DNA from: Gammaproteobacteria bacterium
GTDB lineage: Bacteria; Pseudomonadota; Gammaproteobacteria; Eutrophobiales; Eutrophobiaceae
DNA length: 64,000 nucleotides
Assembly: GCA_046757565.1 (NCBI GenBank)
Contig: JBHHYN010000003.1
Span: forward strand, 4,009-68,008
Direction: 5' to 3'
This document shows, piece after piece, positions 26,178 to 46,406 of the stretch. A model generated the notes under the pieces. That model was not told the origin of the DNA. It saw only the letters and a list, made by a program, of their open reading frames with translations, and ran no database searches. A program made the translations under genes and the position numbers. Each line of letters opens with the position of its first letter. Position 1 is the stretch's first letter.

Positions 26178-26219
26178 GACAGTACAGACACAATAAAAGC
26201 GATTTGTAGTCATTACTTC

Positions 26220-26256
26220 GTCCCCGGCATCTCATCGGATGCCGGGGATTTTTATT
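26220..26256 (+). terminator. Rho-independent terminator after xoxF
   Basis: GC stem TCCCCGGCATC..GATGCCGGGGA followed by a TTTTTATT run. Confidence 0.7.
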
Positions 26257-26488
26257 GATAACTACAAGAACTAAAAAATCCTAAATCAGTCTCAACTTGT
26301 CAGATTCCAGTGATTGACGTAATCTCGGCAGGTACTGCGGCGGAAGCAGTGGGTGATAAACACTACAGCACAGCCTGGTGTGGATAACCGCTTCAGGTCA
26401 TGATTCAGATACAGTGTGGGTTAGATATATTTACCTGGGAAAAGCTGCAACAAGCAGGCATTAATTATTTATACGGGAGAATAGACCG

Positions 26489-26920: not shown

Positions 26921-27030
26921 AAAAACTCATAATAGTGCCTTCAGAATTTATGTTGTTTTCTGGCCCCGTCTCGAAAATAATGGCAATCGGCAGGATCTGC
27001 CGGTTACAGGCGGTGGGGCATGAAAATCTG

Positions 27031-27906
27031 ATGTTACTACCCGGTTTGCCGGCACTTCTCTTTTTGATACTTGCACCGGTTATGGCTCAGGCGCAGCCCC
27101 CCTCCGATAACCCTATCGCCGTGTTAAAGGTGTGTGCAGATCCCTATCTGCTTCCATTTTCCAACAGGAAAAAACTGGGTTATGAGAACAGGATAGCGGA
27201 ATTATTTGCCGCCGAGTTGGGCGCAAAGTTGCAATATACCTTTTTCCCGCAACGTATGGGTTTTATCCGCAATACCTTGCGGGCGGAAGTGAGTAATGGA
27301 TCCTATAAATGTGATCTGGTGATCAGTGCCCCCGCCTATTTTGAACTTGCCGCCACCACACAGGCCTATTACAAGTCCATGTATATGATGGTTTATGTCA
27401 AAGGCAGGGGGCTTGATGAGGTGACCCGGCCGGAACTGCTTCCGGAAGTGGTGCAACGGGGGAAAAGCATCAGGTTCGGTCTTTTTGACCGCGGTCCTGA
27501 ACAGCTCTGGGTCTTTAAAAATAACTTAATGGAATATATGGTGCCTTATGTCTCTCAACCGGGCGCCCTGGATGCCAATCCCGGGATGGATATTTTACAG
27601 GATTTGGTTGACGGTAAAATCGATGTAACCATCGTATGGGGACCGGTTGCCGGGTATTTTGCCAGGCAACATAGGGGTAAGGTCGAACTGGTCATGCTGC
27701 CCTTGCAAAACGATCCGGATGACCCCCAGATGCGATTCGAGTACAAGGTTGCCATGGCGGTCCGTTACGGTGAACCTGCCTGGAAGGAACGGGTCAGCCG
27801 GTTGATTACTGACAACCAGGGAAAGATCGACACCATCCTTAAGGATTATGGTATCCCGCTGTTGCCGCTTGATACAACCAGCCCGCCTGTTCAAGATAAG
27901 GATTGA
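27031..27906 (+). CDS. xoxJ: XoxJ/MoxJ-like periplasmic binding protein (quinoprotein-dehydrogenase-associated SBP)
   Basis: MxaJ/XoxJ family SBP-like sequence with a signal peptide starting at MLLPGLPALLFLILAPVMAQA. The ORF-track start at 26935 is probably an over-extension. Confidence 0.75.
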   Translation: MLLPGLPALLFLILAPVMAQAQPPSDNPIAVLKVCADPYLLPFSNRKKLGYENRIAELFAAELGAKLQYTFFPQRMGFIRNTLRAEVSNGSYKCDLVISAPAYFELAATTQAYYKSMYMMVYVKGRGLDEVTRPELLPEVVQRGKSIRFGLFDRGPEQLWVFKNNLMEYMVPYVSQPGALDANPGMDILQDLVDGKIDVTIVWGPVAGYFARQHRGKVELVMLPLQNDPDDPQMRFEYKVAMAVRYGEPAWKERVSRLITDNQGKIDTILKDYGIPLLPLDTTSPPVQDKD

Positions 27907-31478: not shown

Positions 31479-33084
31479 TCTGGAATTCCTCCGAAAAGTA
31501 TTTTATGGCACAACGTAACGGATTAGGGGCCGATTGCCCCAAACCGCAGATGGAAGCATCACTCATTGCCATCGCCAACTCTTCGAGTAAGGATTGATCC
31601 CAAGTCTGTTGTTGCATCAAGTTTACTGCTTTTGTTGTCCCGACGCGACATGGCGTACACTGTCCGCAGGACTCATGTTCAAAAAAACGCATGCTGTTCA
31701 GGGCGGCGTCTTTCGCCCTGTCATGATCGGACAACACGATAATGGCGGCTGACCCGATAAAACAGCCATATTCGTTAAGTGTATCAAAATCCAACGGTAT
31801 GTCTCCCATGGAGGCGGGTAATAGGCCACCTGAAGCGCCACCGGGGAAATAGCCATAAAATTCATGACCGGGTAACATACCGCCACAATATTCGTCGATC
31901 AATTCGCGTACGGTAATTCCCGCCGGGGCAAGATGGACCCCGGGGTTCTGAATGCGGCCGCTGACAGAAAATGAGCGAAGACCGTGTCTGCCATGCCGGC
32001 CATGGGAGGTAAACCAGCCTGCCCCTTTTTCAATCAGGTCGCGAATCCAATGCAGGGTTTCCATATTATGTTCCAGTGTCGGGCGGCCGAACAGTCCCAC
32101 TTCCGCCACATAGGGGGGACGCAGGCGCGGCATCCCGCGTTTTCCCTCAATGGATTCGATCATGGCCGATTCTTCACCGCATATATAGGCGCCGGCGCCG
32201 CGGCGCAGATGGATGGGCGCCACGGCGCAGGGTGGATTGGCTTGCAGGGCAGCCAGTTCCTGCTGCAATATCCGGCGGCAGCCGGCATATTCATCGCGTA
32301 AATAGAGGTAGATCTCCTCCGCCTCGATGGCCCAGGCCGCGATCAACGCACCTTCCAGAAAGCGGTGAGGGTCCCGTTCCAGGTAATAGCGGTCCTTAAA
32401 GGTACCGGGTTCCCCCTCATCGATATTCACTGCAATCAACCTGGGTTTTTGCTGTTGGCGCAGGATCTCCCATTTTACCCCGGCGGGAAAACCGGCCCCC
32501 CCGAGACCACGTAGCCTGGAATCCTTCAGGACACCGATGATGGAATCGGCTGTATGGGTTCCTGCATGACACCCCTGCAATAATGTGTAGCCGCCTGTTG
32601 CGGTATATTGCTCATAGTTTATGTATTCACCGGGAGAGGCTTCAATCTCATTATTTTCAATAGCCTTACTAATGCTTTCCAAACTGGCGTCCTCGATGGG
32701 ATGGGTGCCGACGACGGCCACCGGCGCGCTGTGACAGCGACCGACACAAGGTACAGTCTGAATACGGATATTGCCGTTCAGACCTGCTTTCAATGCCTTG
32801 ATTAAGGATTGCGCCCCGAACATTTCGCAGCTGACGGAGTCGCACACCCGGACAGTTAATTCCGGAGCCGTGGTATTTTTTTCTTTCACTACGTCAAAGT
32901 GGTGGTAAAAGGTGGCGACTTCGTAGACCTCTGTGGTGGCCAGTTTCAATTCTTCCGAAAGCGCTGCGATATGCTCTGCGGATATCTGATGATATTTGTC
33001 CTGAATCCGATGCAGGAACTCAATTAACAGATCACGCCGTCTGGGCGCCTTACCCAGTAAATTGTTGACTTGCTGCAGCGCCAT
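31462..33084 (-). CDS. fdsB: Formate dehydrogenase fused gamma-beta subunit (NuoE-like 2Fe-2S plus NuoF-like FMN/NAD/4Fe-4S)
   Basis: A NuoE-like segment (CDSVSC...PCVGRCHSAP) is continuous with a NuoF-like segment (GLGGAGFP, ESCGQCTPCR). The start was chosen at MALQQ (33084), because the first 83 codons of the ORF-track frame would overlap fhcC. Confidence 0.75.
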   Translation of the reverse strand: MALQQVNNLLGKAPRRRDLLIEFLHRIQDKYHQISAEHIAALSEELKLATTEVYEVATFYHHFDVVKEKNTTAPELTVRVCDSVSCEMFGAQSLIKALKAGLNGNIRIQTVPCVGRCHSAPVAVVGTHPIEDASLESISKAIENNEIEASPGEYINYEQYTATGGYTLLQGCHAGTHTADSIIGVLKDSRLRGLGGAGFPAGVKWEILRQQQKPRLIAVNIDEGEPGTFKDRYYLERDPHRFLEGALIAAWAIEAEEIYLYLRDEYAGCRRILQQELAALQANPPCAVAPIHLRRGAGAYICGEESAMIESIEGKRGMPRLRPPYVAEVGLFGRPTLEHNMETLHWIRDLIEKGAGWFTSHGRHGRHGLRSFSVSGRIQNPGVHLAPAGITVRELIDEYCGGMLPGHEFYGYFPGGASGGLLPASMGDIPLDFDTLNEYGCFIGSAAIIVLSDHDRAKDAALNSMRFFEHESCGQCTPCRVGTTKAVNLMQQQTWDQSLLEELAMAMSDASICGLGQSAPNPLRCAIKYFSEEFQSGGQS

Positions 33085-33164
33085 CGGATCGACCTGTCTG
33101 CCGCGTAACTGGTTGCGCTTTTTCTGTCCGATTGCTGTTTTTTGTGTGCTTATGTCCACGATTG

Positions 33165-33986
33165 TTATACACCACTTATCATGATTAAAATTTCCCCCTT
33201 GCCATCCACTGAAATGTCCCCGGCATAGCGCTGTACCTCGGGCCCAAATTCCCTGAAAAATCTGAAGCGCCTGCCCATGCCGGCGATCTGCTTGTAGAAG
33301 AGCCTCAGGAACTCCATCTTGAGCTTCCCGCAACTGCTGAATGCCGGGGACAGTTTCAATGGTCTTTTCCCGAGAACAATCGTCCCGCGCTTCATGCCAT
33401 AACCGGCATGATTATCAGTTCTCCCGAGAACCACTATGGTCCCGGCTATCATGCGGCTGCCGGTGTAGGATCCGGCCTGGCCGAGGACGATGATCATCCC
33501 CCGGCGCATGCGATCCCCCGTCCGGTCACCGGCATTGCCCTCTATCGTGACAGCTCCACCCGACATGCCATGTGCCTTATGCACCAGGGCCGCACCGGTA
33601 AAATTACCGGCGTCACCGGAAATAGCTATTCTGCCGCCCGACATGCCGGTTGCAGTCCAGTCCCCGGCATCGCCCTGAACGTTAATCCGGCCGCCGCTCA
33701 TATCCTCGCCGAGGTAATCGCCGGCATGGCCCCGTACCTCTATGATACCACGGCTCATATCATGACCGATGCGGGACAAGCCCCCGGAACAACGGCGTAA
33801 CTGGATAAATTCGGAATCTTCGCCAGTCACATCGAACAACTCTCTGACGGCAATGCGGTGTCCACCCGCGTTCAGTTTGACAGCCCGGATAGCGTTAATG
33901 TTCCGTCCCGCCAGCTTGTCAGGCGTCAACGGGGAGAGATCGATGTTACCATCCGTCCTTTTTTTGAGAGTAAATACCAAGGGCAT
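33165..33986 (-). CDS. fhcC: Formyltransferase/hydrolase complex subunit C (FwdC-like beta-helix)
   Basis: Glycine-rich GxxGxxxG beta-helix repeats typical of FwdC/FhcC. Its ATG overlaps the ftr stop (TAATG). Confidence 0.8.
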   Translation of the reverse strand: MPLVFTLKKRTDGNIDLSPLTPDKLAGRNINAIRAVKLNAGGHRIAVRELFDVTGEDSEFIQLRRCSGGLSRIGHDMSRGIIEVRGHAGDYLGEDMSGGRINVQGDAGDWTATGMSGGRIAISGDAGNFTGAALVHKAHGMSGGAVTIEGNAGDRTGDRMRRGMIIVLGQAGSYTGSRMIAGTIVVLGRTDNHAGYGMKRGTIVLGKRPLKLSPAFSSCGKLKMEFLRLFYKQIAGMGRRFRFFREFGPEVQRYAGDISVDGKGEILIMISGV

Positions 33987-34882
33987 TATTTTAATATGTC
34001 CCATAGATGGAAATGATAGGGACCCAGTTTGCCACCGAAATTACCGGCACTGATACGGTAGATACCCTTATCGGGACCATGCTGACACACAGCCATGACC
34101 CCCGCATACATGGCCTCCTTGATCGCCTCTTCATTCAGTCCGTCGATGACGATTTCCAGCACAGAGCCAATCTCGTCGGTCAGTTCGCTGTGGACCTGCC
34201 CTTTCAGGGTCGGGCAAAAGGCCTCATTGGTAGATGCCGGCATAAATTTATATTTGGCGCCGATTTTGGATCCTGAACCGACGATTCCGCCCGGAAAAGT
34301 CGTGACGGCGCCGTGGACCCTGCGAATCGCTTTAACGGCTTTTTCACAGGCACTCAGACCATGTCTGGAGGTCTTTGCCAGGACCAGAAAATTCCCTCCG
34401 CCGATGGCGGGGACGATCCCCGTCGTTTCCTCACAAAGAAATTCACCGTGCATCACCGGAATGCGCCAGTAACGGATGCCGTTTATCTTTTTCGATATCT
34501 GATAACCGTCACCGAAATATCTGAGGCTTTTCCCCAACGAGATCATGTGATCGCTATGACTGCCGGCAAAACAGGCGCTGGTTGCGGTGGTCATTACCGA
34601 TTGTCCCACACGTCTCTTTACCTGCTCCTGCAGTTGCGATGTCGACATGGCGAACATGATGACGGCGATTCCGGGCCGCCCGTCGGGCGTCTCATCGGGA
34701 TCGAGTTCACGCTCAATATCCGCTTCACAACCACAGGCGATGACCGAAGAGGCAAAGCCCGTCAACGAGTTTGCCGCCCGGTAGGCCCACTTTATGGTCA
34801 TGGCGGTAATGATGAGGCGCGTGGCCTTCATGGGGAAGGCCTCGGCGAAGCTGTTATCGATTTTTACGCCGTTGATTTCCAT
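33986..34882 (-). CDS. fhcD: Formylmethanofuran:tetrahydromethanopterin formyltransferase (Ftr/FhcD), copy 1
   Basis: 298 aa Ftr family protein, about half identical by eye to the second copy at 40566-41465. Confidence 0.8.
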   Translation of the reverse strand: MEINGVKIDNSFAEAFPMKATRLIITAMTIKWAYRAANSLTGFASSVIACGCEADIERELDPDETPDGRPGIAVIMFAMSTSQLQEQVKRRVGQSVMTTATSACFAGSHSDHMISLGKSLRYFGDGYQISKKINGIRYWRIPVMHGEFLCEETTGIVPAIGGGNFLVLAKTSRHGLSACEKAVKAIRRVHGAVTTFPGGIVGSGSKIGAKYKFMPASTNEAFCPTLKGQVHSELTDEIGSVLEIVIDGLNEEAIKEAMYAGVMAVCQHGPDKGIYRISAGNFGGKLGPYHFHLWDILK

Positions 34883-34887
34883 TGCTG

Positions 34888-36549
34888 TTACTTTTGATGG
34901 CAGGGGTGGACACTGATCGATTCCCTTCCATATCCCATTAACTCGTCATCACTGATTCTGAAATTCCCGGGAGTGACGGTGAGATAGCGGTTAAAGAACT
35001 GTTTCAGGTGATGTTCAATGCCGGGCTCATAATCAGGCTTGACGGTGTGGGTAATCCCGGCCGGCGTTCTTAACAATCTGCCGTTGCGTACTATTAATCC
35101 CCCGTTTTTAAAGACATATTCAGGCCGGGCAAACATCTTTTCCCGGTTTGCCATATCTTTATAAACAGTAATATCTGCGTTGGCGCCGGTGCCAAGATGC
35201 CCGCAGTCCCGCAGCCCCAGACTCTTTGCCGGTGCTGCACGTGTCATGATGGCAATCTCATATAAGGAATATTCCCGGTCGAGACCGCCAAGGGTGGTAA
35301 CGCTCTGCGCCTGTCTGTTGATGGAATGCAGCATGTCGTTACGAAATGATCGGTCCATTAACAGGCGGATCAGGTGGGGATAACTGGTGAACGGCGCGCC
35401 GTTTGGATGATCGGTAGTAAGAAAAATCCGCCAGGGATCATCAGCCATAAGAAAAATTTCGAGCCCGATACACCATTGCAAGGCATTCACAAAATTCCTG
35501 TCACGGTAGCGGAAAGGTACTACACCACAGCCGGCATCACACTCGATATCCATACTGACCCATTTTTTGGGGTGGGCATGCACACGACCCTTGAATTGCA
35601 TCATGGTGTCGCCGGAGGCAGTAACGGTCTGGCCGAACATTATTTGCCCCACATCCATGGAAATGGCGCTATTTTTATTGAATGCCTCGCTAATCTCCGC
35701 TGCGGCAGAGGAAAAGTTTTTATCGCCCTCGGTCCCATAACTGTGAAACTGGATATGGGTCAGATGCATCGGCACGCCGTCCACTGCCTGCATGGTTTCC
35801 AGGGTGGTTTTCATATTTCCGGGGACGCCCAGATTGCAACCGTGAACGTGTAACGGATGGGGCACGCCTAACGCCTGTAATGCCCGGCTGAGCGATGTCA
35901 GGATCATCCGCGGAGTTACCCCGTAGTAACTGTTCTTGTCATCCAGGTCCAGTTTGCGCTGGTTGAATTTAAAGGCATTAATGCCGCCGGGATTGACTAC
36001 TTTGATCCCGATTGCCTGGGTCGCATGCATGGTCCATGCAACATAGTCTTTGATAAGCTCCTGGTCTTCATTCCTGGCCAGCATGCGCAGCAGGAAATCA
36101 TCGTTGCCGAGCAGGGCGTAGGCGCCTGTATCGATGATAGGGATGTCAGCCATTTCCATGTGGGCCTGGCGGGCATTGCTTGGCAGCATGGCGGGTTCAA
36201 AGCAGGTGGTGTATCCCATTTCCGCGTAACGGTAGCCGGTGCTGAATGTAGATGGGGCAGCATGGCCGCATCCGGCTCTAGTGATATGCGTGCGCCGGAT
36301 TAAATTCGCCTGATGGTCCTCGGGAAGCAGCATCCTGGCAATATTAATCTTACCGCCACCGATATGGGTGTGGATATCGATAGCGCCGGCCATCACCACT
36401 CTGTCCGTCACATCGATGACTTTATCCGGCCCCCTGTTTTTGCCCGGTTTACGTACTATGCGGCCATCGCGGATATAGATATCACGCCGTTTACCGTTGA
36501 CCCCATGCATGGGGTCATACACTGTTCCACCCGCGAGTTTTATCAGCAT
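34888..36549 (-). CDS. fhcA: Formyltransferase/hydrolase complex subunit A (FwdA-like amidohydrolase)
   Basis: Amidohydrolase metal-binding motif IDIHTHIGGG; 553 aa. Confidence 0.85.
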   Translation of the reverse strand: MLIKLAGGTVYDPMHGVNGKRRDIYIRDGRIVRKPGKNRGPDKVIDVTDRVVMAGAIDIHTHIGGGKINIARMLLPEDHQANLIRRTHITRAGCGHAAPSTFSTGYRYAEMGYTTCFEPAMLPSNARQAHMEMADIPIIDTGAYALLGNDDFLLRMLARNEDQELIKDYVAWTMHATQAIGIKVVNPGGINAFKFNQRKLDLDDKNSYYGVTPRMILTSLSRALQALGVPHPLHVHGCNLGVPGNMKTTLETMQAVDGVPMHLTHIQFHSYGTEGDKNFSSAAAEISEAFNKNSAISMDVGQIMFGQTVTASGDTMMQFKGRVHAHPKKWVSMDIECDAGCGVVPFRYRDRNFVNALQWCIGLEIFLMADDPWRIFLTTDHPNGAPFTSYPHLIRLLMDRSFRNDMLHSINRQAQSVTTLGGLDREYSLYEIAIMTRAAPAKSLGLRDCGHLGTGANADITVYKDMANREKMFARPEYVFKNGGLIVRNGRLLRTPAGITHTVKPDYEPGIEHHLKQFFNRYLTVTPGNFRISDDELMGYGRESISVHPCHQK

Positions 36550-36553
36550 GCGT

Positions 36554-37828
36554 TTACAGGGATTGATGGATTCTGGTCAGTATATCGCTGACGCTGTGTC
36601 TCCCTGTCTGCCGGATTTTTTTCAACGGCAGACAGACGACGTTGTCGGTACGAAACAGGTTCCCCACATGGTCCAGTCCGGGTGTGGCAATGGGGATATA
36701 CACCTCGGCATCGAGGGCGATCTTTTTCGATGGGCGTGTCAGCATGATGGCGGGAATATTTGTCTGAGGCGGTTGCAGTCCCTTATCGAAACTGGATATC
36801 CAGAGCAGGGCATCGGCCTCCGTTTTTCCCAGCACCGCCTTTTCCGAAAAATTATAGGGATCATATTCCGGGTAACCCTCTGTGTAACTGATCCGTGACG
36901 GGTATCCGCTTTGCCAGGTACAGACATTAACAAAAGAGGTTCCGCCGTTATCGCCCCCCAGCGCCAGGCCGGCACAACGGGACATCTGATTGAGTTCCTT
37001 GAGCAATTCGCAGATCGTCTGGATGGTTAATTCCGCATGGGGTTGCAGCAGTTCACCGGGTGCCCAGATGAACACCCCGTAGCTGGCTTGTTTGATACGT
37101 TCAGATACTCTCTTCAAGGCGCCCAGCTTCCTGCCGGTGATGGAATCCGATTTTATTTCGCAACCCTTTACCAGGGCGCGCAGTACAGCAACGGTTTCGC
37201 CCAGGGATTCGTCAGTGCAATGGATAACTGTCGCTTTTCCAGCGCCAGGATTCAACCCCGGTCGGGTTTTCAAATTATGCCCTAAATATATGATTTCCCG
37301 ATTATTTTTCTTTAAACCGGAGCATGAATACTGGTTCCATATAAAGCGTTCGAACAATCTCGGGAAATTAGAATTGCCATCGGTGCCTATGAAGACAATC
37401 ACATCGGCCCGGTTTTTAAGTTCTGCCAGGGTGGTCATAACCCATCCGCCGGATTGTAATGCCAGGGCGTTATTGATGGCCCCATCGGCATGACTGTGGT
37501 CGAGAATTGCGCCACTGGACTCAGCCAACAGCATCGCTGCGCGACTGCCGGAAACATCCGTGCCAAGACCGGTAATAATGGGTTGACGGGCATCGCGCAA
37601 TATTTCTGCGGCATGTGTGACGGCTTCATCCAGCGAGGTTTGTTTGCCGTGTATATGGGGAGGAACGTCAGAATCGGCAGTTTCAAAACCACGCACCGCC
37701 TTCGCGCAGCCATTACGTTTGACGGTGAGTTTACCGTCCCGATTCCTTAACACCAGGTCATCGCATAACAGACTACAGAAGGGACAGGTGACCTCTTCGA
37801 AGATTTTTGATTGACTGCTGGATGACAT
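36554..37828 (-). CDS. fhcB: Formyltransferase/hydrolase complex subunit B (FwdB-like, lacking the Mo/W-ligating cysteine)
   Basis: FwdB-like N-terminus (CPFCSLLCDD). The position that aligns to VCHGPS in the paralog reads LDHSHADG, so the cofactor-ligating Cys is absent. Confidence 0.8.
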   Translation of the reverse strand: MSSSSQSKIFEEVTCPFCSLLCDDLVLRNRDGKLTVKRNGCAKAVRGFETADSDVPPHIHGKQTSLDEAVTHAAEILRDARQPIITGLGTDVSGSRAAMLLAESSGAILDHSHADGAINNALALQSGGWVMTTLAELKNRADVIVFIGTDGNSNFPRLFERFIWNQYSCSGLKKNNREIIYLGHNLKTRPGLNPGAGKATVIHCTDESLGETVAVLRALVKGCEIKSDSITGRKLGALKRVSERIKQASYGVFIWAPGELLQPHAELTIQTICELLKELNQMSRCAGLALGGDNGGTSFVNVCTWQSGYPSRISYTEGYPEYDPYNFSEKAVLGKTEADALLWISSFDKGLQPPQTNIPAIMLTRPSKKIALDAEVYIPIATPGLDHVGNLFRTDNVVCLPLKKIRQTGRHSVSDILTRIHQSL

Positions 37829-37837
37829 AGAATCTCT

Positions 37838-37895
37838 GGTTCAGGGTTCAGGGTTCAGGGTTCAAGGTTGAACCTTGAACGTTGAACTTTGAACC
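37838..37895. repeat. Palindromic heptad array (GGTTCAG x3, GGTTCAA, GGTT | GAACCTT, GAACGTT, GAACTTT, GAACC) that fills the fpr-fhcB intercistronic gap exactly
   Basis: Seen directly. The two arms are imperfect reverse complements and would form a stem of about 26 bp between the fpr stop (37897) and the fhcB start (37828). Confidence 0.85.
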
Positions 37896-37896
37896 T

Positions 37897-39279
37897 TTAA
37901 TCCAGCAAGGCCAGCATCTCTTCGACACTAGTATACTTCTCGCGAGGTTTCTCATTAGCTGTCCCGTGCTCGATTTCACTTTTATCGATTTTTTTCCAGT
38001 CGGAAAAATTGATATAACGAATTCCTTTTTTATCAAGAATGCTGTAAATCCCTTCGGCGCCACATTTCTTTTCACCGGAATCCAGTAGCGCGATATCTTC
38101 TAACAGGTGGGTGACGGTTTCCACACTATCTGCGCGGTTCGTGCCGATAATACCGGTAGCCCCCCGTTTAATCCATCCGGCAGTATACAACCGGGGAATA
38201 AAGGCATTATCTGTGCCAATGATGCGGCCGTTTTCGTTAGGGAATCGCCCCTGTTTTTCATCAAACGGGACACCGGGCATGGCGATGCCACGATAGCCGA
38301 TACTCCTGAACACGATACCGGTTTCGAGCGCACAGGTTTCGCCGCTCCCCCGGGCGGATTGCCGGAATGGCTCGCCACTCAGTTGGTTTCTTTCCAGAAT
38401 AATCTTCTCCACCCGGTCGCCGCCGGTAATCTCTTTCGGGCTTTTCAGGAAAGTAAAGTGGCAGGTGCGTTGTTTTGCCGGGTCAATCTCCCGCCGGGAA
38501 AATCCCTGGAAGAGTTCATAGATTTTTCTGTTTCCCGCGTGATTCTTGTCGGCTAGTTCGGTCTCGCTTTCAGGGTTCAACGCCAGTTCATTTGCTGCTA
38601 CAAACGGATTGCAATCCTGCAACTCACCAAATTCTTTCAACTCCTTCGATGTAAATTTTGCCTGCGCCGGCCCGCGTCTGCCTATGACATATATATTACG
38701 TATTTTGCTTGCAGCCAGGCAGTCCAGGGCATGTTGCGCGATATCGGTGTGTTTGAGTTCATCGATGGTTTTGGCCAGGATGCGCGCCACGTCAGCGGCG
38801 ACATTCCCCTGCCCGATGATCACGGCATTTTCATGGGATAGATCAAAATTCCGGTCGCGATAATCCGGGTGGCCGTTATACCAGCCGACAAATTCCGTGG
38901 CCGTATGACTGCCGGGAAGATCTTCTCCAGGTATTCCCAGTTTGCGGTCGGTCTCGGCGCCACAAGTAAAAACAACGGCATGGTGACTGCTGGTCAAATC
39001 ATCAATGCTGATATCCCTGCCCACGGTGACATTGCCGATATAATTGAATTCAGGCGATTCCGCTATTTTTGCGTATAACTGAATCGCCTGCTTCAGTTTC
39101 TGATGATCCGGCGCCACCCCGCTGCGTACCAGACCATAGGGACTGGGCAGCCGTTCAAGCATATCTACTTTCACTGAAATATCGGATCGGATCAGTGCTT
39201 CGGTGGCATAGAACCCACTTGGTCCACTGCCGACAATTGCGACAAGCAAGGGGTTTTGCTCAGTACCGAGTTGACTCAT
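37897..39279 (-). CDS. fpr: FprA-type ferredoxin-NADP+ reductase (adrenodoxin-reductase-like FAD/NAD(P) oxidoreductase)
   Basis: FAD-binding motif VAIVGSGPSGFY and NADP-binding motif AVIIGQGNVAADVARIL; 460 aa. Confidence 0.8.
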   Translation of the reverse strand: MSQLGTEQNPLLVAIVGSGPSGFYATEALIRSDISVKVDMLERLPSPYGLVRSGVAPDHQKLKQAIQLYAKIAESPEFNYIGNVTVGRDISIDDLTSSHHAVVFTCGAETDRKLGIPGEDLPGSHTATEFVGWYNGHPDYRDRNFDLSHENAVIIGQGNVAADVARILAKTIDELKHTDIAQHALDCLAASKIRNIYVIGRRGPAQAKFTSKELKEFGELQDCNPFVAANELALNPESETELADKNHAGNRKIYELFQGFSRREIDPAKQRTCHFTFLKSPKEITGGDRVEKIILERNQLSGEPFRQSARGSGETCALETGIVFRSIGYRGIAMPGVPFDEKQGRFPNENGRIIGTDNAFIPRLYTAGWIKRGATGIIGTNRADSVETVTHLLEDIALLDSGEKKCGAEGIYSILDKKGIRYINFSDWKKIDKSEIEHGTANEKPREKYTSVEEMLALLD

Positions 39280-39398
39280 ACAGGTTCACTATTTTGACGC
39301 AGAAACACGCACAAAGGACGACAAAAACGAAAAAAAATTGATAGAGGTGGGAGATTAGCAGTTCCATACCTCTTTTTTTTGCCAATGGGTAAACGGGA

Positions 39399-39704
39399 TT
39401 AGAATCCCAGTTCTGCTTTTCTCTCCTCGGCGCCGGGCAATGGTTCCATCTGGTCCGAACATACGGGTAATCCGGGAGCGCGATCAGCATTTATCTGTAT
39501 CCATGCTTGCTGTTCTTCCGGTAAATCGTCTTCTTCGTAGATCGCCTGGACCGGACATTCGGGTATACAGGCGCTGCAGTCGATACAGACATCGGGGTCG
39601 ATATACAGCATCTCGTCGTCATAATGGAAGCACTCTACCGGACAGACCGTTACACAATCCGTGAAACGGCATTTATTACAGTTCTCGGTTACGACTGTGG
39701 TCAT
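39399..39704 (-). CDS. fdxA: 7Fe ferredoxin (FdxA, Azotobacter type)
   Basis: MTTVVTENCNKCRFTDCVTVCPVECF...CIDCSACIPECP fits the 3Fe-4S plus 4Fe-4S ferredoxin pattern. The ATG at 39704 is preceded by AGGAGG; the longer ORF-track frame looks like an over-extension. Confidence 0.85.
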   Translation of the reverse strand: MTTVVTENCNKCRFTDCVTVCPVECFHYDDEMLYIDPDVCIDCSACIPECPVQAIYEEDDLPEEQQAWIQINADRAPGLPVCSDQMEPLPGAEERKAELGF

Positions 39705-39759
39705 TGTCCCCTCCTGATTAATTGATGTTTGTTCGGGTAATGCTATTTTTAACAAGGTG

Positions 39760-40569
39760 TTAACCCTTGTAAAGTAAAATCTCACCCCGGTTAAGTTCGA
39801 TGGCGTCGCCACTCCAACGCTGATACGCCCCACTGATCTGTTCTTCCCTGAGCGGCAGGTCCAATCCCTGCAAGTACAGCAGATATATCCGTAAATAGGC
39901 CGGTTGGTAGGTACATGCGTAACTGAAGGTCGGTAAAAGTTCAGTAGCATGCATGCTGATGATGGTCCCCCTCTTCATGCCTGCGCCGCTCCTGTTGCCC
40001 AATTCGCCCAGGACAATAATCGTCCCCGCCAGCATATTGACCCCGGTGAAATCACCGCTGTTACCGCCAATAACGATGATGCCATTACGCATGCCGTGAC
40101 CGATTTCATTGCGTGCATTACCATGGACGATGATCTCTCCACCCTGTATCCCGATAGTGCTGCCACGGTAGGCGCTACCAATCATGTGTCCGGCATCTCC
40201 CTTGATCTGGATGCGCCCGCCTGACATATCCGGTGCCACCCAGTCACCCACATTGCCTGTCACGACGATCTCGCCGCCGGACATGCCTGCACCCAGGTGG
40301 GCGCCGACGTTGCCATTAACATGCAGATGTCCCGATGACATACCGGCGCCGATATATTTTACATTGGTAAGGTCCCCGTGCAGCCGGGTCGTACCGTTCG
40401 ATGTTCCTTCAACATTGAAGAAATCGCCCACTGCCGCCTGTTCATTGCCATGCTGTACTGATAAAGACTCGATTTCGGCGGGACTCAGGCCAGCCACTCT
40501 GTCAGGAGAAATATTTTCCGCTTCCAACGGCACCTCCGGGGCCGTGTGTAACGTCAGCTCCAGACTCAT
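39760..40569 (-). CDS. fwdC: Formylmethanofuran dehydrogenase subunit C, copy 2
   Basis: The same Gly-rich beta-helix repeat family as fhcC. ATGA overlap with the upstream ftr copy. Confidence 0.8.
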   Translation of the reverse strand: MSLELTLHTAPEVPLEAENISPDRVAGLSPAEIESLSVQHGNEQAAVGDFFNVEGTSNGTTRLHGDLTNVKYIGAGMSSGHLHVNGNVGAHLGAGMSGGEIVVTGNVGDWVAPDMSGGRIQIKGDAGHMIGSAYRGSTIGIQGGEIIVHGNARNEIGHGMRNGIIVIGGNSGDFTGVNMLAGTIIVLGELGNRSGAGMKRGTIISMHATELLPTFSYACTYQPAYLRIYLLYLQGLDLPLREEQISGAYQRWSGDAIELNRGEILLYKG

Positions 40570-41465
40570 GGCGCCTGTCCTTCCAACAAGCTGTGCAGTT
40601 CAATTTTGAACTGGCCGAGACCGCCACCGTAATTACCGGCCGATATCTGCCGGATGCCGGGTTTGGCTGCGGCATAGAGCCCACGCTGCATGGCCGCCCG
40701 CACTGCCTCTTCATCCAGACCGTCGATAACGATTTCCAGTACGCAATTTACCCCCGGCCCGAGACTGGAATCCTGCCTGATGCCACGCAGGGTAGGGCAG
40801 TAGGCATCATTGGTTGAAGCAATCAGGGATTTATATTTCGAACCGACTTTACTGCCGCTGCGGACGACTCCATCGGGAAAGGGCAGAATGATACCGGCTA
40901 TCTCCTGCATGGCCTTGACCGCTGCATTGGCGGATCGCAGTGTCGTTTTCAGGTCTTTCCCCAGCAGCAGCAGATTTCCTCCACCTACAGCCGGCTGTAT
41001 ATTGAAGCGTTCATCCACCAGGAACTCGCCGTCCATGACCGGGATACGCCAGAAACGCCTGCCGTTTAACTGTTTACTTCCCTGGAAACCGTCACCGAAA
41101 TAACGCAACTGGCCACCGACCACGACGGGATGCTCCGATTCCAGTCCGTTGTAACAGGCCGTTGTCGGGCAGGTCATGACGCATTGGCCGATGCGCTCGA
41201 CCAGGCGTTTCCCGGCACTTTGCGCATCCATGGCAAACAGCAGCACGCTGATGCCAGGGCGCTTGTCAGGCGTTTCCTCCGCCGGCATCTCCCGTTCGAT
41301 GCCTGCCTCGCATTTACAGCCAATAACGGATGTTGCAAAACCGGTGATGGAGCGGGCCGCCGCCAGGGCCCATTGCCGGGTCTCGGCCGTGATGACGATG
41401 CGTGCACCCCACATTTTGAAGGCCTCTGCAAAGGTATCGACAATTTCTGTGGATTTTATTTTCAT
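40566..41465 (-). CDS. ftr: Formylmethanofuran:tetrahydromethanopterin formyltransferase, copy 2
   Basis: 299 aa Ftr paralog, translationally coupled on both sides. Confidence 0.8.
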   Translation of the reverse strand: MKIKSTEIVDTFAEAFKMWGARIVITAETRQWALAAARSITGFATSVIGCKCEAGIEREMPAEETPDKRPGISVLLFAMDAQSAGKRLVERIGQCVMTCPTTACYNGLESEHPVVVGGQLRYFGDGFQGSKQLNGRRFWRIPVMDGEFLVDERFNIQPAVGGGNLLLLGKDLKTTLRSANAAVKAMQEIAGIILPFPDGVVRSGSKVGSKYKSLIASTNDAYCPTLRGIRQDSSLGPGVNCVLEIVIDGLDEEAVRAAMQRGLYAAAKPGIRQISAGNYGGGLGQFKIELHSLLEGQAP

Positions 41466-43099
41466 TTTGTCGGGATAATTTCATGGTCGTGCAGATATCT
41501 GTCAGCGACGGCGTAATTATCAAACTCGATAGAGTAGTAATCTTCAAAAAACGGCCGCACACTGTCAACGATGGCCTCATCATATTTCGGCGTAACGTGT
41601 AACAGGCGGCCGATATGGTCCTGTGTAAACTCATGGTCTTCGATAATGGGTTTCCCCGACTTGATGACATAACGTGGCGCGCTGAACATGATTTCCTTGT
41701 CCTGGTGCTCATCATAAATCGTGATATCTGCCTCCGCACCAACGCCCAGGTGGCCCTTGTTGGCGAGTCCAAGCACTCTGGCGGGGCCGGCCCGGGTAAT
41801 GATCGCAATCTCGTTCAGGGTATACTCGCGGTCGAGATCCGGCAGCAGCGACTTGCTGATTGCCTTCTGGTTGACATGTTTGCACTCTTCCTTCCTGAAC
41901 TCCCTGTCCATTAACAGGCGGATTAACTTGGGGTAACTCATAAACGAGCCGCCATTGGGATGGTCGGTGGAGAGGATCGTGCGCCAGGGGTCCTGCGATA
42001 ATAGAAACAGTTCCAGGCCAATCGCCCACTGCAGGGCATGCACATAAATATGTTCCTGATAGCTGAACGGCACAATACCGCAGCCGCTCTCGCACTCGGT
42101 ATCGGCATTAACCCATTTGTTTTTACTGATGCCCCGGAGCATATAGGCCAGTGGGGCGTCGGCCGTCATGATGGTGGATTTTCCAAACATGACCTGGCCG
42201 ACGTCACAGGTGATGTTTGGGTGGGCGTTGATATATTCCGCGATGATTTTCGCGCCTGAACGCGGGTTTTTCCCGACCTCGCCTGCGTAGCTGTGAAACT
42301 GGATATGGGCCATATGCAGGCGCCGGTCACCGGCGGTGCGCATTGTCTCCAGCGTGGTATCAATATTGCCGCTGTGGCCAAGGTTATTGCTGTGGATGTG
42401 CGTGGGGTGGGGAAGGCCCAGTTCAGTCACGGCATCTACGAAAGCATCTATGATCTGTCTTGGGCTTATTTCAAAGACATCATTTTTTTCATCAATGTTG
42501 GCGACATTGGAATTGCGCTTTCCCTTCCAGGGTTCATCGCCGCCCGGGTTGACCAGTTTCGCCGTATAGCCCTTGCAGGCATTCAACCACCAGGCGACGG
42601 CCTGTTGGAATTCTTCTTTGCGGCCCTGTTGCAGTAATTGTTGTAAAAAAATATTATTGCCGAGCAGCACATAAAAACCCTTGTCGATGACCGGCGTGTC
42701 TTGCAACTCTTCCAGGGCATGTCTGGCGCCGATGGGTGGGACGGCCGCCTCCATGGCGGTAGTGTAACCCAGCGTGGCGTAGCGATAACCGGTAGCAAAG
42801 GTGGATGGCACGATGCCTCCTGTCCCCGAACGGGTCAGTCGTGTACCGGGATGCGGATCATGGCGATGGTCCTCAGGTTGCAGTTTACGGGCAAGATTTA
42901 CCTTCGGACCGGCTATATGACAATGAATATCGATACCGCCCGGCATGATCACCATGCCATCGGCGTCTATCTTTTTTGTATCGGCAGGAACGCTCTCGAC
43001 GATTCTACCGTCTTCGATGCAGAGTTCACAGGTCTTACCGTCAATAGCGTTCGCGGGATCATAGACTTTTCCATTAACGATGCGCAGCCGTATACTCAT
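41462..43099 (-). CDS. fwdA: Formylmethanofuran dehydrogenase subunit A, copy 2 (amidohydrolase)
   Basis: IDIHCHIAGPK metal-binding motif; a 545 aa paralog of fhcA. Confidence 0.85.
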   Translation of the reverse strand: MSIRLRIVNGKVYDPANAIDGKTCELCIEDGRIVESVPADTKKIDADGMVIMPGGIDIHCHIAGPKVNLARKLQPEDHRHDPHPGTRLTRSGTGGIVPSTFATGYRYATLGYTTAMEAAVPPIGARHALEELQDTPVIDKGFYVLLGNNIFLQQLLQQGRKEEFQQAVAWWLNACKGYTAKLVNPGGDEPWKGKRNSNVANIDEKNDVFEISPRQIIDAFVDAVTELGLPHPTHIHSNNLGHSGNIDTTLETMRTAGDRRLHMAHIQFHSYAGEVGKNPRSGAKIIAEYINAHPNITCDVGQVMFGKSTIMTADAPLAYMLRGISKNKWVNADTECESGCGIVPFSYQEHIYVHALQWAIGLELFLLSQDPWRTILSTDHPNGGSFMSYPKLIRLLMDREFRKEECKHVNQKAISKSLLPDLDREYTLNEIAIITRAGPARVLGLANKGHLGVGAEADITIYDEHQDKEIMFSAPRYVIKSGKPIIEDHEFTQDHIGRLLHVTPKYDEAIVDSVRPFFEDYYSIEFDNYAVADRYLHDHEIIPTK

Positions 43100-43165
43100 A
43101 CCTCTTTCCAGTCTCTGCTTTTTTATTCGTTGTTATCAGAGCGGGAGATCAGCTGATGAGCTGCA

Positions 43166-44524
43166 TTAGACGCTGAATGGTGCGGCGGCGGCTTCAGCCG
43201 TTCCACGCGTCCCGCTTTTTGCTAACACCAGTTCCTGTACTCTATTCCTTATGGACGTTAATATCTCCTCATCTGCCGGAAATGGAGACTCAAAGGCAGG
43301 CTTCAGTGTGATGGGAACATCGTCCATTCGATATACTGTACCGGAGGTATTGATCCCGTAAGTGGCCGTACGGAAGGCTACGTGTGCCAGCCTGCTTGTA
43401 TCCGTCTCTTTTGTATCAAGTGAAATAACGGGGATCTTATGCAGGTGATCGATTGCCCTCTGGGGAAAATTGGAGGCCGGATCACTGGCAATGATCAACG
43501 CCGCGTCGGCATCGCCCCGGGCCAACACATCAACCGTGGTAAATTCACCCGGATTAAAGCGGGGAAAACCGCGGCTGAAATTGACTCCGAACGGGTACCC
43601 GGTCTGCCAGGAGACGACGTTATCTGCTCCGGTAACGTTGCCGTGGCCACGCACGGGTTTGGCGACAAAATGGGTGAACCCATTCAGATCCGTAGCCAGC
43701 GCAAGCAATGCACCGGAATTGAAATGCCGGCCACGTGTCATGGTCAGGCCCATGCCGAAGAACAGCACCCCGTAACGGCAACTTTTCATGCGTTGCACCA
43801 GATCCTCGAGCGTCTCCAGGGGCACGCCGGTGTTCTCCTCGATGGACGGGTTGATGGCATGTCCTTTGACCAGGGCGCGCAGCGCCCACAACACTTCAAA
43901 GTCCCTGCCGGGTTTTACCTGGATAAAGATATCGGCAACCGGGGTGCTCGCCGTCTTCCTGACATCGACCAGGACAACCGTGCGGTCTTTTTTACCGTTC
44001 GGGGTATACATACCTTTTGGCGTGACCGCATACTTTGTAAAATGGCGTGGATGCGCTTCAGCGGGGTTTCCACCCCAATAGATGACGAGATCTGCACGGT
44101 TTTTGACTTCCCCCAGGGTCATAGTGCTTTCTCCAATCCCCTGAAAGGCAAGTCCCGATGGACCGTGGCAGACCGAGGTGGTGGTATCGACCGTGCCCCG
44201 GACAATATCCGTGATAGCGACAGCCTGACGTTGCGCCTCGCAAGTAGTATCACTTAATCCATAGGTGATCGGATAGCGGGCGTGTACCAGGATCTGTGCG
44301 GCTTCTTCCACCGCTTCATCAAGGCTGGCTTCCCGGCTGTCGATCATCGCCGCCGGCGCGGCTTCAATGGTATGTTCGGCAAACCAGGCGCGGCCCAGTA
44401 CACAGGCGTTCTTTGCCTTTGTAATGCGTTTCTCATCCATGTCGACGGTCAATATCATATCGTCACAGACACAGCCACAGAACGTGCATGTTGCGTTGTT
44501 AACGGTTCTTATGTTTTCGCCCAT
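43166..44524 (-). CDS. fwdB: Formylmethanofuran dehydrogenase subunit B, copy 2, retaining the molybdopterin-ligating cysteine
   Basis: N-terminal Cys cluster (TCTFCGCVCDD) and a TTTSVCHGPSG motif. This corresponds to the SeCys/Cys-HGP Mo/W-ligand motif of the formate dehydrogenase family. The start was chosen at MGENIRTV; the longer ORF-track frame would overlap fwdD. Confidence 0.75.
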   Translation of the reverse strand: MGENIRTVNNATCTFCGCVCDDMILTVDMDEKRITKAKNACVLGRAWFAEHTIEAAPAAMIDSREASLDEAVEEAAQILVHARYPITYGLSDTTCEAQRQAVAITDIVRGTVDTTTSVCHGPSGLAFQGIGESTMTLGEVKNRADLVIYWGGNPAEAHPRHFTKYAVTPKGMYTPNGKKDRTVVLVDVRKTASTPVADIFIQVKPGRDFEVLWALRALVKGHAINPSIEENTGVPLETLEDLVQRMKSCRYGVLFFGMGLTMTRGRHFNSGALLALATDLNGFTHFVAKPVRGHGNVTGADNVVSWQTGYPFGVNFSRGFPRFNPGEFTTVDVLARGDADAALIIASDPASNFPQRAIDHLHKIPVISLDTKETDTSRLAHVAFRTATYGINTSGTVYRMDDVPITLKPAFESPFPADEEILTSIRNRVQELVLAKSGTRGTAEAAAAPFSV

Positions 44525-44606
44525 CTTTACTAGTATAGATAATAAGAGCTTGCTGTGAAACGCAGTGAGTCCAATAAATATATTGATGATATCCAGGTTT
44601 ACCGGT

Positions 44607-44954
44607 TTAACCGGTAACTTTCTCCACCTCAACTTCAAGATGTTTCGATTGTGGCATTCCACTCGCGGCCGTGTCACTCCCCATTAACCGGCTAGAACCG
44701 GGGCCATAGGCCATAAACAGCAATCCGGGAGGCAGGTCAGCCACCTTTCTGCTTTTACACCCCACAATGGTTTCCCCGATGTGGTTACAAAGCCGCACTT
44801 TGTCACCCTCATTCAGATCCAGCCTTTTCATGTCATCTTCATTCATCTCGACGGTGCTGGTGATCGCCAGGTATTCCTCTTTACATTTTCCTTTGTTCAG
44901 TGATGTGCCCTGTTTGGTGGAGCGGCCCGGGATCAATAGCATCGTTTCCGTCAT
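44607..44954 (-). CDS. fwdD: Formylmethanofuran dehydrogenase subunit D (small molybdopterin-dinucleotide-binding-like subunit)
   Basis: 115 aa resembling FwdD/FmdD. It lies immediately upstream of fwdB copy 2, and cluster 1 has no equivalent. Confidence 0.65.
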   Translation of the reverse strand: MTETMLLIPGRSTKQGTSLNKGKCKEEYLAITSTVEMNEDDMKRLDLNEGDKVRLCNHIGETIVGCKSRKVADLPPGLLFMAYGPGSSRLMGSDTAASGMPQSKHLEVEVEKVTG

Positions 44955-45416
44955 GTAATGTCTCCGCTGCGAGGCAGCTTTATTGTCCGGGGGGATCTAT
45001 TTTAGATCAAAAATTTCCAAGGGATAGCGAGCGCCCCCTTTTCACATATCCTCATCCTTATTATCATTTTAGGTTTAAGCCGTCAAATTTCTCTTAAAGT
45101 CTTCACGACAGGCCTGTTTTTCGGATCAACATGTGCGTGTCGGCCGGATGCCTTCATAGTGGACTTAAACCCCCTGTCCCAGTGATGAGTTTAGCATAAA
45201 GTTGTATCAAATATTGCCCCGCCTTCGGCATCCGGAATAGATTTCCTGATCACATTTAGCATAAACCCGGGGCCATGTTAAAATAGAGAGTGCGGTATAA
45301 CTTAGGGATTAACCGATCCGATGAAGGTCAACGTATCATATAAGGATTAATGACATCCCGGTTTCACCGATTGTTCAAAAAATAATCTCTATTTCCACTT
45401 GAGTCGGAAGGATCAA

Positions 45417-46406
45417 ATGGATGAATTACGTGTGAGTGTTTTTGCCCCGGCGCGGCTGCATTTGGGATTTATCGATATGCATGGTGGCCTGGGCAGGTAT
45501 TTTGGCAGTCTGGGAATCAGCCTGGCCGAGATCCATACCGATCTGGTCATGACGCGGGATTCCGGCATCTCAGCCGATGGACCCGGTTCTGATCGGGCCG
45601 CCGTTTGTGCCGAAAGGCTGATAACGCATCTGCAGCTGGATGGTGGTGTGCATATCAAGCTAAACAGCGTCATTCCGGAACATATGGGTCTGGGATCCGG
45701 GACCCAGATGTCGCTCGCGGTAGCAACAGCCATAGCCAGACTCCATGGGCTTAATATCTCAATAGCCGACCTGGCTGCGGTGATGGATCGTGGCAGCCGC
45801 TCCGGTATCGGTATCGGGGCCTTTATGTATGGTGGCTTTATTGTTGATGGTGGGCTGGGCGCTGACAGCAAGGTACCGCCAATTATCAGCCACATGGATT
45901 TTCCGGAAACGTGGCGCTTTATATTGGTCATCGATAACGAGCGCCGTGGTATCGAAGGCCCTGCAGAAAAGCAGGCATTCAAGCATTTGGCCGGTATGGA
46001 CGAGCGCACGGTAGCGGACGTGTGCCGTCTGGTCCTGATGCAGGTGTTACCCGCTGTTGCGGAAAGCGATTGCCGCCAGTTTGGCGAGGCGATTACGGCG
46101 ATTCAGCAGGTGTCCGGGAATTATTTCGCAGAGATACAGGGAGGGCAGTACAACAGTCCGGAGGTGGGGCGCGCGCTTTCATCGTTGCTGGACGACGGTG
46201 CACACGGTATCGGACAAAGCTCCTGGGGGCCGACCGGTTTTGCCGTTTTTGCGAGCGAAACGGATGCCCGCCATGCATTAGAGCGGTTAATCAATGACCA
46301 TGAAAACAGCCATCGGCTGCAATTTATATTATGCAGGGCCCGTAACAACAAAGCAGACGTGCGGTTAGAAGAGGCTACTTATAACAGTTCAATCCCTATT
46401 TCATAA
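45417..46406 (+). CDS. mptG: Beta-ribofuranosylaminobenzene 5'-phosphate synthase (GHMP-kinase fold; methanopterin biosynthesis)
   Basis: GHMP kinase motif PEHMGLGSGTQMSLAVA, plus its position in the H4MPT gene island. The ATG at 45417 is preceded by a GGAAGGA SD. Confidence 0.75.
   Translation: MDELRVSVFAPARLHLGFIDMHGGLGRYFGSLGISLAEIHTDLVMTRDSGISADGPGSDRAAVCAERLITHLQLDGGVHIKLNSVIPEHMGLGSGTQMSLAVATAIARLHGLNISIADLAAVMDRGSRSGIGIGAFMYGGFIVDGGLGADSKVPPIISHMDFPETWRFILVIDNERRGIEGPAEKQAFKHLAGMDERTVADVCRLVLMQVLPAVAESDCRQFGEAITAIQQVSGNYFAEIQGGQYNSPEVGRALSSLLDDGAHGIGQSSWGPTGFAVFASETDARHALERLINDHENSHRLQFILCRARNNKADVRLEEATYNSSIPIS

Follow-up and report, generated by a model that had tools for sequence, protein, structure and literature searches.

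In the archaeal formyl-methanofuran (formyl-MFR) dehydrogenase FwdABCDFG, as solved for Methanothermobacter wolfeii (PDB 5T5I) and in further structures (7BKB, 9SFI and 9SW6), subunits A, B and C are accompanied by a separate cap subunit, FwdD, and FwdB carries Cys118, His119 and Arg288 as well as the cysteines of a [4Fe-4S] cluster. The formyltransferase/hydrolase (Fhc) complex of Methylorubrum extorquens (PDB 6S6Y) has no FwdD, its FhcB subunit has lost Cys118, His119 and Arg288 along with the iron–sulfur (Fe–S) domain, and the complex releases formate (PMC6926001). In the accepted scheme for bacterial methylotrophs, Fhc arose from the CO2-reducing enzyme of archaea by loss of the dehydrogenase half, and assimilation and oxidation diverge at formate. 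Here we analyze a 64,000-nucleotide stretch of DNA (contig JBHHYN010000003.1 of assembly GCA_046757565.1, positions 4,009 to 68,008; hereafter the window), which derives from an uncultured gammaproteobacterium, represents a methylotrophy island and contains an operon, fwdD-fwdB-fwdA-ftr-fwdC-fdx-fpr, beside an Fhc-type gene set. Based on sequence comparisons, we estimate a probability of roughly 0.62 that this operon specifies a bacterial, redox-competent formyl-MFR dehydrogenase whose genes follow the Fhc plan, linked to NADP and operating in parallel with Fhc and a neighboring formate dehydrogenase (FDH).

A preliminary description of the window had placed two formylmethanofuran clusters side by side with genes for a ferredoxin and an FprA-type reductase, and its gene calls and coordinates were verified by open reading frame (ORF), Pfam and NCBIfam annotation. 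All of these genes lie on the minus strand. In order of transcription, fwdD-fwdB-fwdA-ftr-fwdC-fdx-fpr (44954–37897; the fwd-ftr genes are referred to as cluster 2) is followed by fhcB-A-D-C (37828–33165; cluster 1, a formyltransferase/hydrolase-type paralog set) and a two-gene FDH (33333–28716). With archaeal Fwd, cluster 2 shares the A, B and C subunits with a separate D cap, the Cys/His/Arg residues and [4Fe-4S] cysteines of FwdB, and the metal-ligand motifs of FwdA. Unlike archaeal Fwd, it comes without FwdF/FwdG polyferredoxin or FwdE/H genes, it has ftr between A and C together with genes for a soluble-type 7Fe ferredoxin and FprA, and its host is an aerobic-type methylotrophic gammaproteobacterium in which the presumed direction is oxidative. 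With M. extorquens Fhc, cluster 2 has in common the gene order B-A-ftr(D)-C and the tetrahydromethanopterin (H4MPT)/methylofuran pathway, whereas it differs in retaining FwdD, the Cys/His/Arg set and the Fe–S cysteines, and in standing next to a true Fhc-type paralog.

Two other described systems are also relevant. Actinobacteria from the Hakuba serpentinite setting, likened here by description, show the identical fwdDBA-ftr-fwdC order, an N-terminal [4Fe-4S] domain, Cys118 and no fwdE/F/G (PMC7325909), and this type of operon is therefore not new for Bacteria. Their host is an anaerobic Wood–Ljungdahl organism in which methanopterin biosynthesis genes were not found, there is no paralogous Fhc, and neither an fdx-fpr nor a diflavin module was reported. 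With respect to direction, cluster 2 resembles the formyl-MFR dehydrogenase (FMD) of Candidatus Ethanoperedens thermophilum (8RJA), which is oxidative and has a higher-potential two-electron carrier as thermodynamic pull, as proposed here, and whose FwdB and FwdA match the window proteins with E 9e-114 and 482 bits, respectively. This ethane oxidizer couples FMD oxidation to F420 (PMC11493965, PMC11656701); it is archaeal and anaerobic and uses an F420 reductase module, whereas the module of cluster 2 would be NADP-linked via Fdx/FprA, or via a diflavin fusion in Methylococcales.

The preliminary description had also placed the proposed route outside the textbook picture of methylotrophy, and the literature largely agrees. 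Chistoserdova found fwdD kept in Archaea, Synergistetes, Firmicutes and NC10, and not in Planctomycetes or Proteobacteria (PMC5020050), and both the Fhc structure paper and a 2024 FMD review give Fhc as the sole bacterial counterpart (PMC6926001, PMC11656701). The M. capsulatus genome was reported to hold A, B and C genes only, with an extra A/ftr pair (PMC517821), and a superfamily survey counted 149 bacterial FwdB matches without analyzing them (PMC10100899). For the fdx-fpr link, the FwdD–diflavin fusion and a Cys-type Fwd in Proteobacteria beside Fhc, we found no report in literature searches that left most subscription papers outside their reach. The claim is tempered by the similar operon of the Actinobacteria (PMC7325909).

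An indication of a redox function comes from FwdB (43166–44524, minus strand; 452 residues), which is annotated as the dehydrogenase subunit with a molybdenum/tungsten (Mo/W)-bis(pyranopterin guanine dinucleotide) site and an N-terminal [4Fe-4S] motif (NCBIfam TIGR03129, 509 bits). Its true start is Met52, at 44524, of a longer 503-residue ORF that begins at 44677, and the 452-residue product is 100% identical to a database protein (P0001). FwdB is approximately 50% identical to solved archaeal FwdB and aligns nearly end to end with five such chains (E 1e-97 to 1e-116), the best matches being 9sfi_Q, 8rja_B and 5t5i_B (E 1e-113 to 1e-116). Its SVCHGPS motif aligns with SVCHGPS of the solved chains, and with SVXHGPS in a chain with X at the ligand position. 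The cysteine of this motif had been proposed earlier as the Mo/W ligand, and the alignment indeed places it at structural Cys118, with counterparts of His119 and Arg288 also present. Specifically, Cys119 and His120 of the window protein (codons 44165–44170, minus strand; Cys codon 44170–44168) correspond to M. wolfeii Cys118 and His119, and the catalytic Arg292 (codon 43649–43651) lies in PVRGHGNVTG, a P-x-RGH sequence that aligns with the Arg288 motif of M. wolfeii. This residue numbering was checked on the alignment of the window FhcB with 5t5i_B. At the N-terminus, the motif C13-x2-C16-x-C18-x-C20...C41 aligns with the archaeal [4Fe-4S] pattern CxxCxxxC...C. The additional Cys18 within this motif (44465–44488, minus strand) is not found in the archaeal CxxCxxxC, whereas every one of the 81 bacterial orthologs has it.

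The remaining subunits of cluster 2 are in keeping with this assignment. The fwdD product (44607–44954; 115 residues) corresponds to the molybdopterin-dinucleotide-binding "domain IV" that caps the Mo/W-pterin site. It matches Pfam PF01568 (Molydop_binding; E 2e-10), the NCBIfam FwdD model (E 1e-19) and the solved FwdD chains 2ki8_A, 9sfi_S, 5t5i_D, 7bkb_J and 8rja_D (E 4e-15 to 5e-10), and orthologs are present in most related loci. By homology, the cluster 2 protein is thus a bona fide FwdD, and the earlier observation that cluster 2 has this gene while cluster 1 lacks it was borne out by Pfam, NCBIfam and the solved chains. FwdA (41462–43099; 545 residues; TIGR03121, 714 bits), the amidohydrolase (formyl-MFR hydrolase/synthase) subunit, aligns with 5t5i_A such that the HxH, Lys178-equivalent, His229-equivalent, His and Asp motifs for the binuclear metal site are all intact, and among PDB entries it scores 474–482 bits against archaeal FwdA versus 386 bits against M. 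extorquens FhcA. The ftr gene (40566–41465; 299 residues; Pfam FTR and FTR_C) encodes the formyl-MFR:H4MPT formyltransferase and sits between fwdA and fwdC with 4-bp overlaps, an order that is kept in relatives; its product scores 310 bits against 6s6y_D (FhcD) versus 292 bits against archaeal Ftr. FwdC (39760–40569; 269 residues; TIGR03122, 271 bits) is the GXGXG subunit and also matches the Pfam GXGXG family. As judged from these alignments, cluster 2 keeps every residue predicted to be needed to oxidize the formyl group to CO2.

Comparison with cluster 1 (33165–37828) reinforces this assignment. The window FhcB (36554–37828, minus strand) has Gly116, Ala117 and Gly291 at the positions of M. 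wolfeii Cys118, His119 and Arg288, in agreement with the preliminary description, which had noted the missing cysteine. Cluster 1 has thus lost its pterin-site residues and has no D subunit, which is how Fhc is distinguished, whereas cluster 2 has undergone neither loss. One difference from M. extorquens FhcB, which lacks the whole N-terminal Fe–S domain, is that the window FhcB retains its four N-terminal Fe–S cysteines (Cys15, 18, 22 and 41), as do 29 of 29 relatives. The paralogs within the window are well separated, at 29% identity for B, 45% for A, 51% for Ftr and 37% for C. We judged subunit affinities by similarity scores (bits and percent identity); on this measure FhcA is marginally nearer M. 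extorquens FhcA (440 bits) than archaeal FwdA (432 bits), and both Ftr copies are slightly nearer FhcD than archaeal Ftr.

Conservation across relatives follows the same division. A scan with one genome per species matched more than 586 relatives, and loci were compared for the best 80, together with others obtained from contig look-ups. The FwdB Cys, His and Arg residues and Cys13, 16, 18, 20 and 41 are invariant in 81 of 81 species-level orthologous loci. In the 29 genomes with both clusters, the median identity to the window protein is 80% for FwdB, 77% for FwdA, 80% for Fdx, 70% for Fpr and 66% for FwdD, versus 46% for both FhcB and FhcC. Moreover, FhcB of these relatives never has Cys, His or Arg at the three former active-site positions, where residues vary freely. 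The difference between FwdB at 80% and FhcB at 46% is the pattern that would be expected of a catalytic subunit and a scaffold. Carriers of the Cys-type cluster include upland-soil-cluster-gamma atmospheric methane oxidizers, metagenome-assembled genomes (MAGs) of Methylococcales, sponge-associated lineages and Gemmatimonadales. Among plasmids and chromids in PLSDB, only FhcB-type genes (at most 28% identity) were found, and no FwdD. In four loci labelled Gemmatimonadales (L056, L061, L062 and L080), a Cys-type fwd cluster stands in tandem with another cluster that is fhc-like (B approximately 35% identical), and their hosts would lie outside the Proteobacteria if the bin labels hold. The labels "uncultured Enterobacteriaceae bacterium" and "Mycobacterium sp." on some MAG records (L006, L014, L021, L025, L037, L047, L074 and L081) are probably unreliable.

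With respect to electron transfer, the two genes that follow fwdC encode recognizable redox proteins. Fdx (39399–39704, minus strand; 101 residues), whose gene has GGAGG as a strong ribosome-binding site, belongs to the Azotobacter FdI type of ferredoxins and is predicted to be a 7Fe ([3Fe-4S][4Fe-4S]) protein. It matches 1frk_A, 1axq_A and other PDB chains with E of about 1e-30 and retains all FdI cysteines (8, 11, 16, 20, 24, 39, 42, 45 and 49) in the 1frk_A alignment; it matches FwdF and FwdG weakly (E 3e-8 and 4e-5), and its orthologs are approximately 80% identical. Fpr (37897–39279, minus strand; 460 residues) is an NADPH:ferredoxin oxidoreductase of the FprA/adrenodoxin-reductase type that aligns over its full length with M. 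tuberculosis FprA (1lqt_A, E 1e-105, residues 9–457) and 1cjc_A (E 2e-94), its dinucleotide-binding motif VGSGPSGFYA falling on VGSGPSAFFA of 1lqt_A. Solved homologs of the pair are available in M. tuberculosis FprA and A. vinelandii ferredoxin I, and FprA and ferredoxins are an established redox couple in M. tuberculosis (PMC6208970). Those couples draw on NADPH to supply P450s and other acceptors, whereas the pair described here shares an operon with a low-potential dehydrogenase and would pass electrons toward NADP+.

The association of this pair with fwd was evaluated in 68 species-level loci with at least 2.2 kb of sequence beyond fwdC. In 61 of these fdx directly follows fwdC, and in 60 the complete fdx-fpr pair does so, with a median gap of 72 bp. 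By comparison, only 27 of 57 loci have fhcB next after fpr, and the pair thus travels with fwd rather than with fhc. In three loci (L021, L041 and L054), fwdDBA-ftr-C-fdx-fpr is followed at once by FDH genes with no intervening fhc cluster. The four Gemmatimonadales loci have fpr directly upstream of fwdD, joined by fdx in L056 only.

An independent line of support for the NADP link comes from relatives that lack fdx-fpr. A Methylococcales-like relative (L059) and the Methylothermaceae B42 MAG carry a Cys-type fwdB-A-ftr-C operon without the pair, and in B42 the divergent upstream gene encodes a 729-residue protein that combines FwdD with an NADPH diflavin reductase resembling CysJ. Its domains are FwdD-like Molydop_binding (residues 9–103), Flavodoxin (197–328), FAD_binding_1 (359–555) and NAD_binding_1 (587–693). 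This architecture occurs in at least 85 protein clusters at 59–94% identity, all from MAGs (Methylohalobius, Methylococcaceae, Crenotrichaceae and similar) and annotated as assimilatory sulfite reductase flavoprotein. Fusion genes of 715–760 residues accompany the Cys-type fwdB-A-ftr-C genes of Methylococcales-type MAGs in L086 (7633–9822, minus), L088 (8001–10202, plus), L089 (5209–7422, plus) and L090 (533–2737, minus), and besides B42, three contigs have a fusion gene that either adjoins the operon or lies 7 kb from it. The N-terminal domain of the fusion is 55–59% identical to the window FwdD over its full length, and the FwdB encoded alongside keeps Cys, His and Arg. In L087 (7452–9822; NCBI LSNW01000032.1) the public call shortens the fusion to 596 residues, although the ORF is continuous and encodes 729–738 residues; the DNA of the B42 region is the same in two assemblies, with a shorter gene called by NCBI. 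This truncated call is one reason that the fusion escaped notice. Two lineages thus appear to have found different ways of joining this dehydrogenase module to a pyridine-nucleotide reductase, one with fdx-fpr and the other with a FwdD–diflavin fusion, and the fusion provides Rosetta-stone evidence for the predicted coupling. Taken together with the synteny in relatives, it strongly supports the earlier suggestion of a ferredoxin/reductase relay dedicated to cluster 2.

In terms of mechanism, the following sequence can be modeled on the archaeal structures; direction, metal, subunit assembly and the role of Fdx/FprA as physiological partners are inferred by analogy. Ftr would transfer the formyl group from H4MPT to methanofuran or methylofuran, and FwdA would hydrolyze the resulting formyl-MFR. 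Formate would then travel through the interior of the complex to FwdB/FwdD, at whose bis-pterin site (Mo or W; Cys119, His120 and Arg292) it would be oxidized to CO2. From the [4Fe-4S] cluster of FwdB, electrons would move to the 7Fe ferredoxin, to FprA (FAD) and finally to NADP+. The predicted net reaction is formyl-H4MPT + NADP+ + H2O -> CO2 + H4MPT + NADPH, by which free formate would be bypassed on a route parallel to Fhc and the NAD-linked FDH next door. The NADP+/NADPH couple lies at approximately −0.32 V. The formyl-MFR/CO2 couple (E0′ −0.53 V; PMC11656701) is well below this value, and formyl-MFR oxidation coupled to NADP+ reduction would consequently be downhill.

Several observations weigh against this reading. 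FprA and CysJ-type reductases usually run from NADPH to an acceptor, and the operon contains no FwdF/FwdG or equivalent polyferredoxin genes, such that any binding of the soluble 7Fe ferredoxin to FwdB is conjectural. The fdx-fpr pair is missing after fwdC in 8 of the 68 loci, a ferredoxin/reductase pair within a one-carbon (C1) island could serve another enzyme, for instance in cofactor biosynthesis, and the named carriers are all uncultured MAGs. Some of these points also favor an unlikely alternative, in which cluster 2 is a true Mo/W formyl-MFR dehydrogenase that passes electrons to another acceptor (a different ferredoxin, Rnf or quinone) while fdx-fpr serves cofactor biosynthesis or Fe–S/redox housekeeping. 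The exceptions to the synteny are consistent with this, as are the divergent neighbors of fwdD, which are H4MPT/methanofuran biosynthesis genes, and the nature of Azotobacter-type 7Fe ferredoxins, which are common housekeeping proteins (the window Fdx scores 114 bits against the NCBIfam FdxA model, under the 135-bit cut-off). However, fdx-fpr stays by fwd even in loci that have fhc and the biosynthesis genes elsewhere, the pair has moved to the opposite side of fwd in Gemmatimonadales, and in an independent lineage FwdD itself has become joined to an NADPH reductase. A role for cluster 2 as a second, non-redox Fhc paralog, with its cysteine and FwdD as evolutionary leftovers, is highly improbable. 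Databases do give both clusters like names, and the bacterial homologs characterized to date are hydrolytic (PMC6926001), but a leftover would not be expected to show the invariance of Cys, His, Arg and five N-terminal cysteines in all 81 loci, or to be held at 80% identity while the scaffold FhcB drifts at those very positions, and FwdD is either retained or fused to a reductase.

Two further alternatives concern substrate and direction. FwdBD belongs to the formate dehydrogenase family, the formate channel of M. extorquens Fhc opens to solvent (PMC6926001), and both routes are encoded side by side, all of which would fit an enzyme in which FwdB/FwdD act mainly as an NADP-linked FDH on free formate (for example from Fhc), with A, Ftr and C forming a second Fhc-like hydrolase and no obligatory channelling. 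We regard this as quite unlikely, given that FwdA is nearer its archaeal counterpart than M. extorquens FhcA, B and D are always co-encoded with A, ftr and C, and a separate NAD-linked FDH is already there. It is very unlikely, in our estimate, that the module runs in the archaeal direction, from NADPH through FprA and ferredoxin to a Fwd that fixes CO2 as formyl-MFR and feeds C1 units into H4MPT for assimilation. The very low-potential [4Fe-4S] cluster of Azotobacter-type 7Fe ferredoxins would suit such a flow, as would the usual oxidation of NADPH by FprA and CysJ-type reductases. Archaeal Fwd offers a precedent for it (PMC11656701). Nonetheless, this direction would be uphill by approximately 0.2 V for two electrons unless a coupling device were available, the operon contains no bifurcating or energy-coupling module, and the surroundings are those of methanol oxidation (xoxF-like dehydrogenase, fae, mch and FDH). 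Formyl-MFR oxidation with NADP+ as acceptor remains the reading that we favor.

The wider neighborhood is that of C1 metabolism. A divergent intergenic region (44955–45398), in which promoters are presumably located, separates fwdD from genes for H4MPT and methanofuran biosynthesis and from mtdB-like, mch and fae genes. On the other side, the NAD-linked FDH (28716–33333, minus strand; Pfam) consists of an alpha subunit (28716–31478) and a fused FdsG/FdsB-like beta subunit (31462 to approximately 33150). The alpha subunit is most similar to the tungsten FDH1 alpha of M. extorquens (7vw6_A, 1259 bits), with its CTRLCHASS ligand motif conserved; the preliminary description had taken this enzyme for FdsGBA, an assignment that we revise, as a W-FDH1-type alpha and a fused beta subunit are present rather than three genes. 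The W-FDH1-type subunit hints at tungsten handling by the organism. Annotation of the rest of the window revealed no Mo/W transport or cofactor genes, and Rfam scans of the whole window at the gathering score, and of 37700–45500 at E up to 1, gave no riboswitch, including the molybdenum and tungsten cofactor (Moco/Tuco) type upstream of fwdD. Further to the left in the window (24330–27906, plus strand), an xoxF-like pyrroloquinoline quinone-dependent methanol/ethanol dehydrogenase gene (TIGR03075, 661 bits) is followed by pseudoazurin-like and MoxJ-like genes, the latter for a binding protein. The blue-copper protein thus stands at the usual place of the cytochrome cL-type partner (XoxG).

The spacer between fpr and fhcB contains a hairpin (37838–37900; ΔG −31.5 kcal/mol, z −5.8) composed of inverted tandem heptamers, GGTTCAG x4.6 and TTGAACC x4.3, with no T-tract. 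A palindromic stem joining fpr to cluster 1 had been described previously; the stem itself is real, while a conserved link between fpr and fhc is not supported, as no such hairpin was found in the fpr-fhcB spacer of 29 relatives (11 to 319 bp). The heptamer repeats, the absence of a T-tract, a sibling element at 61573–61644 and the relatives without a hairpin led us to reject a regulatory coupling of fpr to fhc through this element. Three intergenic tandem-heptamer arrays are present in the window (37838–37900, 61573–61644 and 15552–15612), of which the first two form long hairpins of the GGTTCAG/TTGAACC type and the third is GAAAGTG x8.7. These look like a genome-specific family of repetitive extragenic palindromic (REP)-like repeats and not a conserved part of the system. 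Promoter and terminator scans gave no more sites than shuffled sequences, and operon boundaries therefore cannot be set from them.

Overall, our analysis points toward a final step of C1 oxidation that avoids free formate and yields NADPH, and that is to our knowledge undescribed for methanol-oxidizing gammaproteobacteria. A more ambitious version of this proposal, which we advance tentatively and consider somewhat doubtful as a whole, is that Ftr-FwdABCD forms an all-in-one machine, perhaps with tethered methylofuran as in Fhc, that oxidizes formyl-H4MPT directly to CO2 and delivers NADPH, that it is a living intermediate between Fwd and Fhc served by two convergent NADP modules, and that it serves as the principal path of C1 dissimilation in uncultured methylotrophs and methanotrophs that are widespread, including upland-soil-cluster-gamma and sponge symbionts. 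If the favored reading is correct, these bacteria would have a second, formate-independent exit to CO2 that gives NADPH instead of NADH, and the redox and carbon balances of metabolic models would change. As a natural CO2/formyl-amide catalyst that is linked to a pyridine nucleotide and probably exposed to oxygen, the enzyme would be of interest for CO2-conversion biocatalysis, and it would supply an evolutionary intermediate for the structure-based trajectory from Fwd to Fhc.

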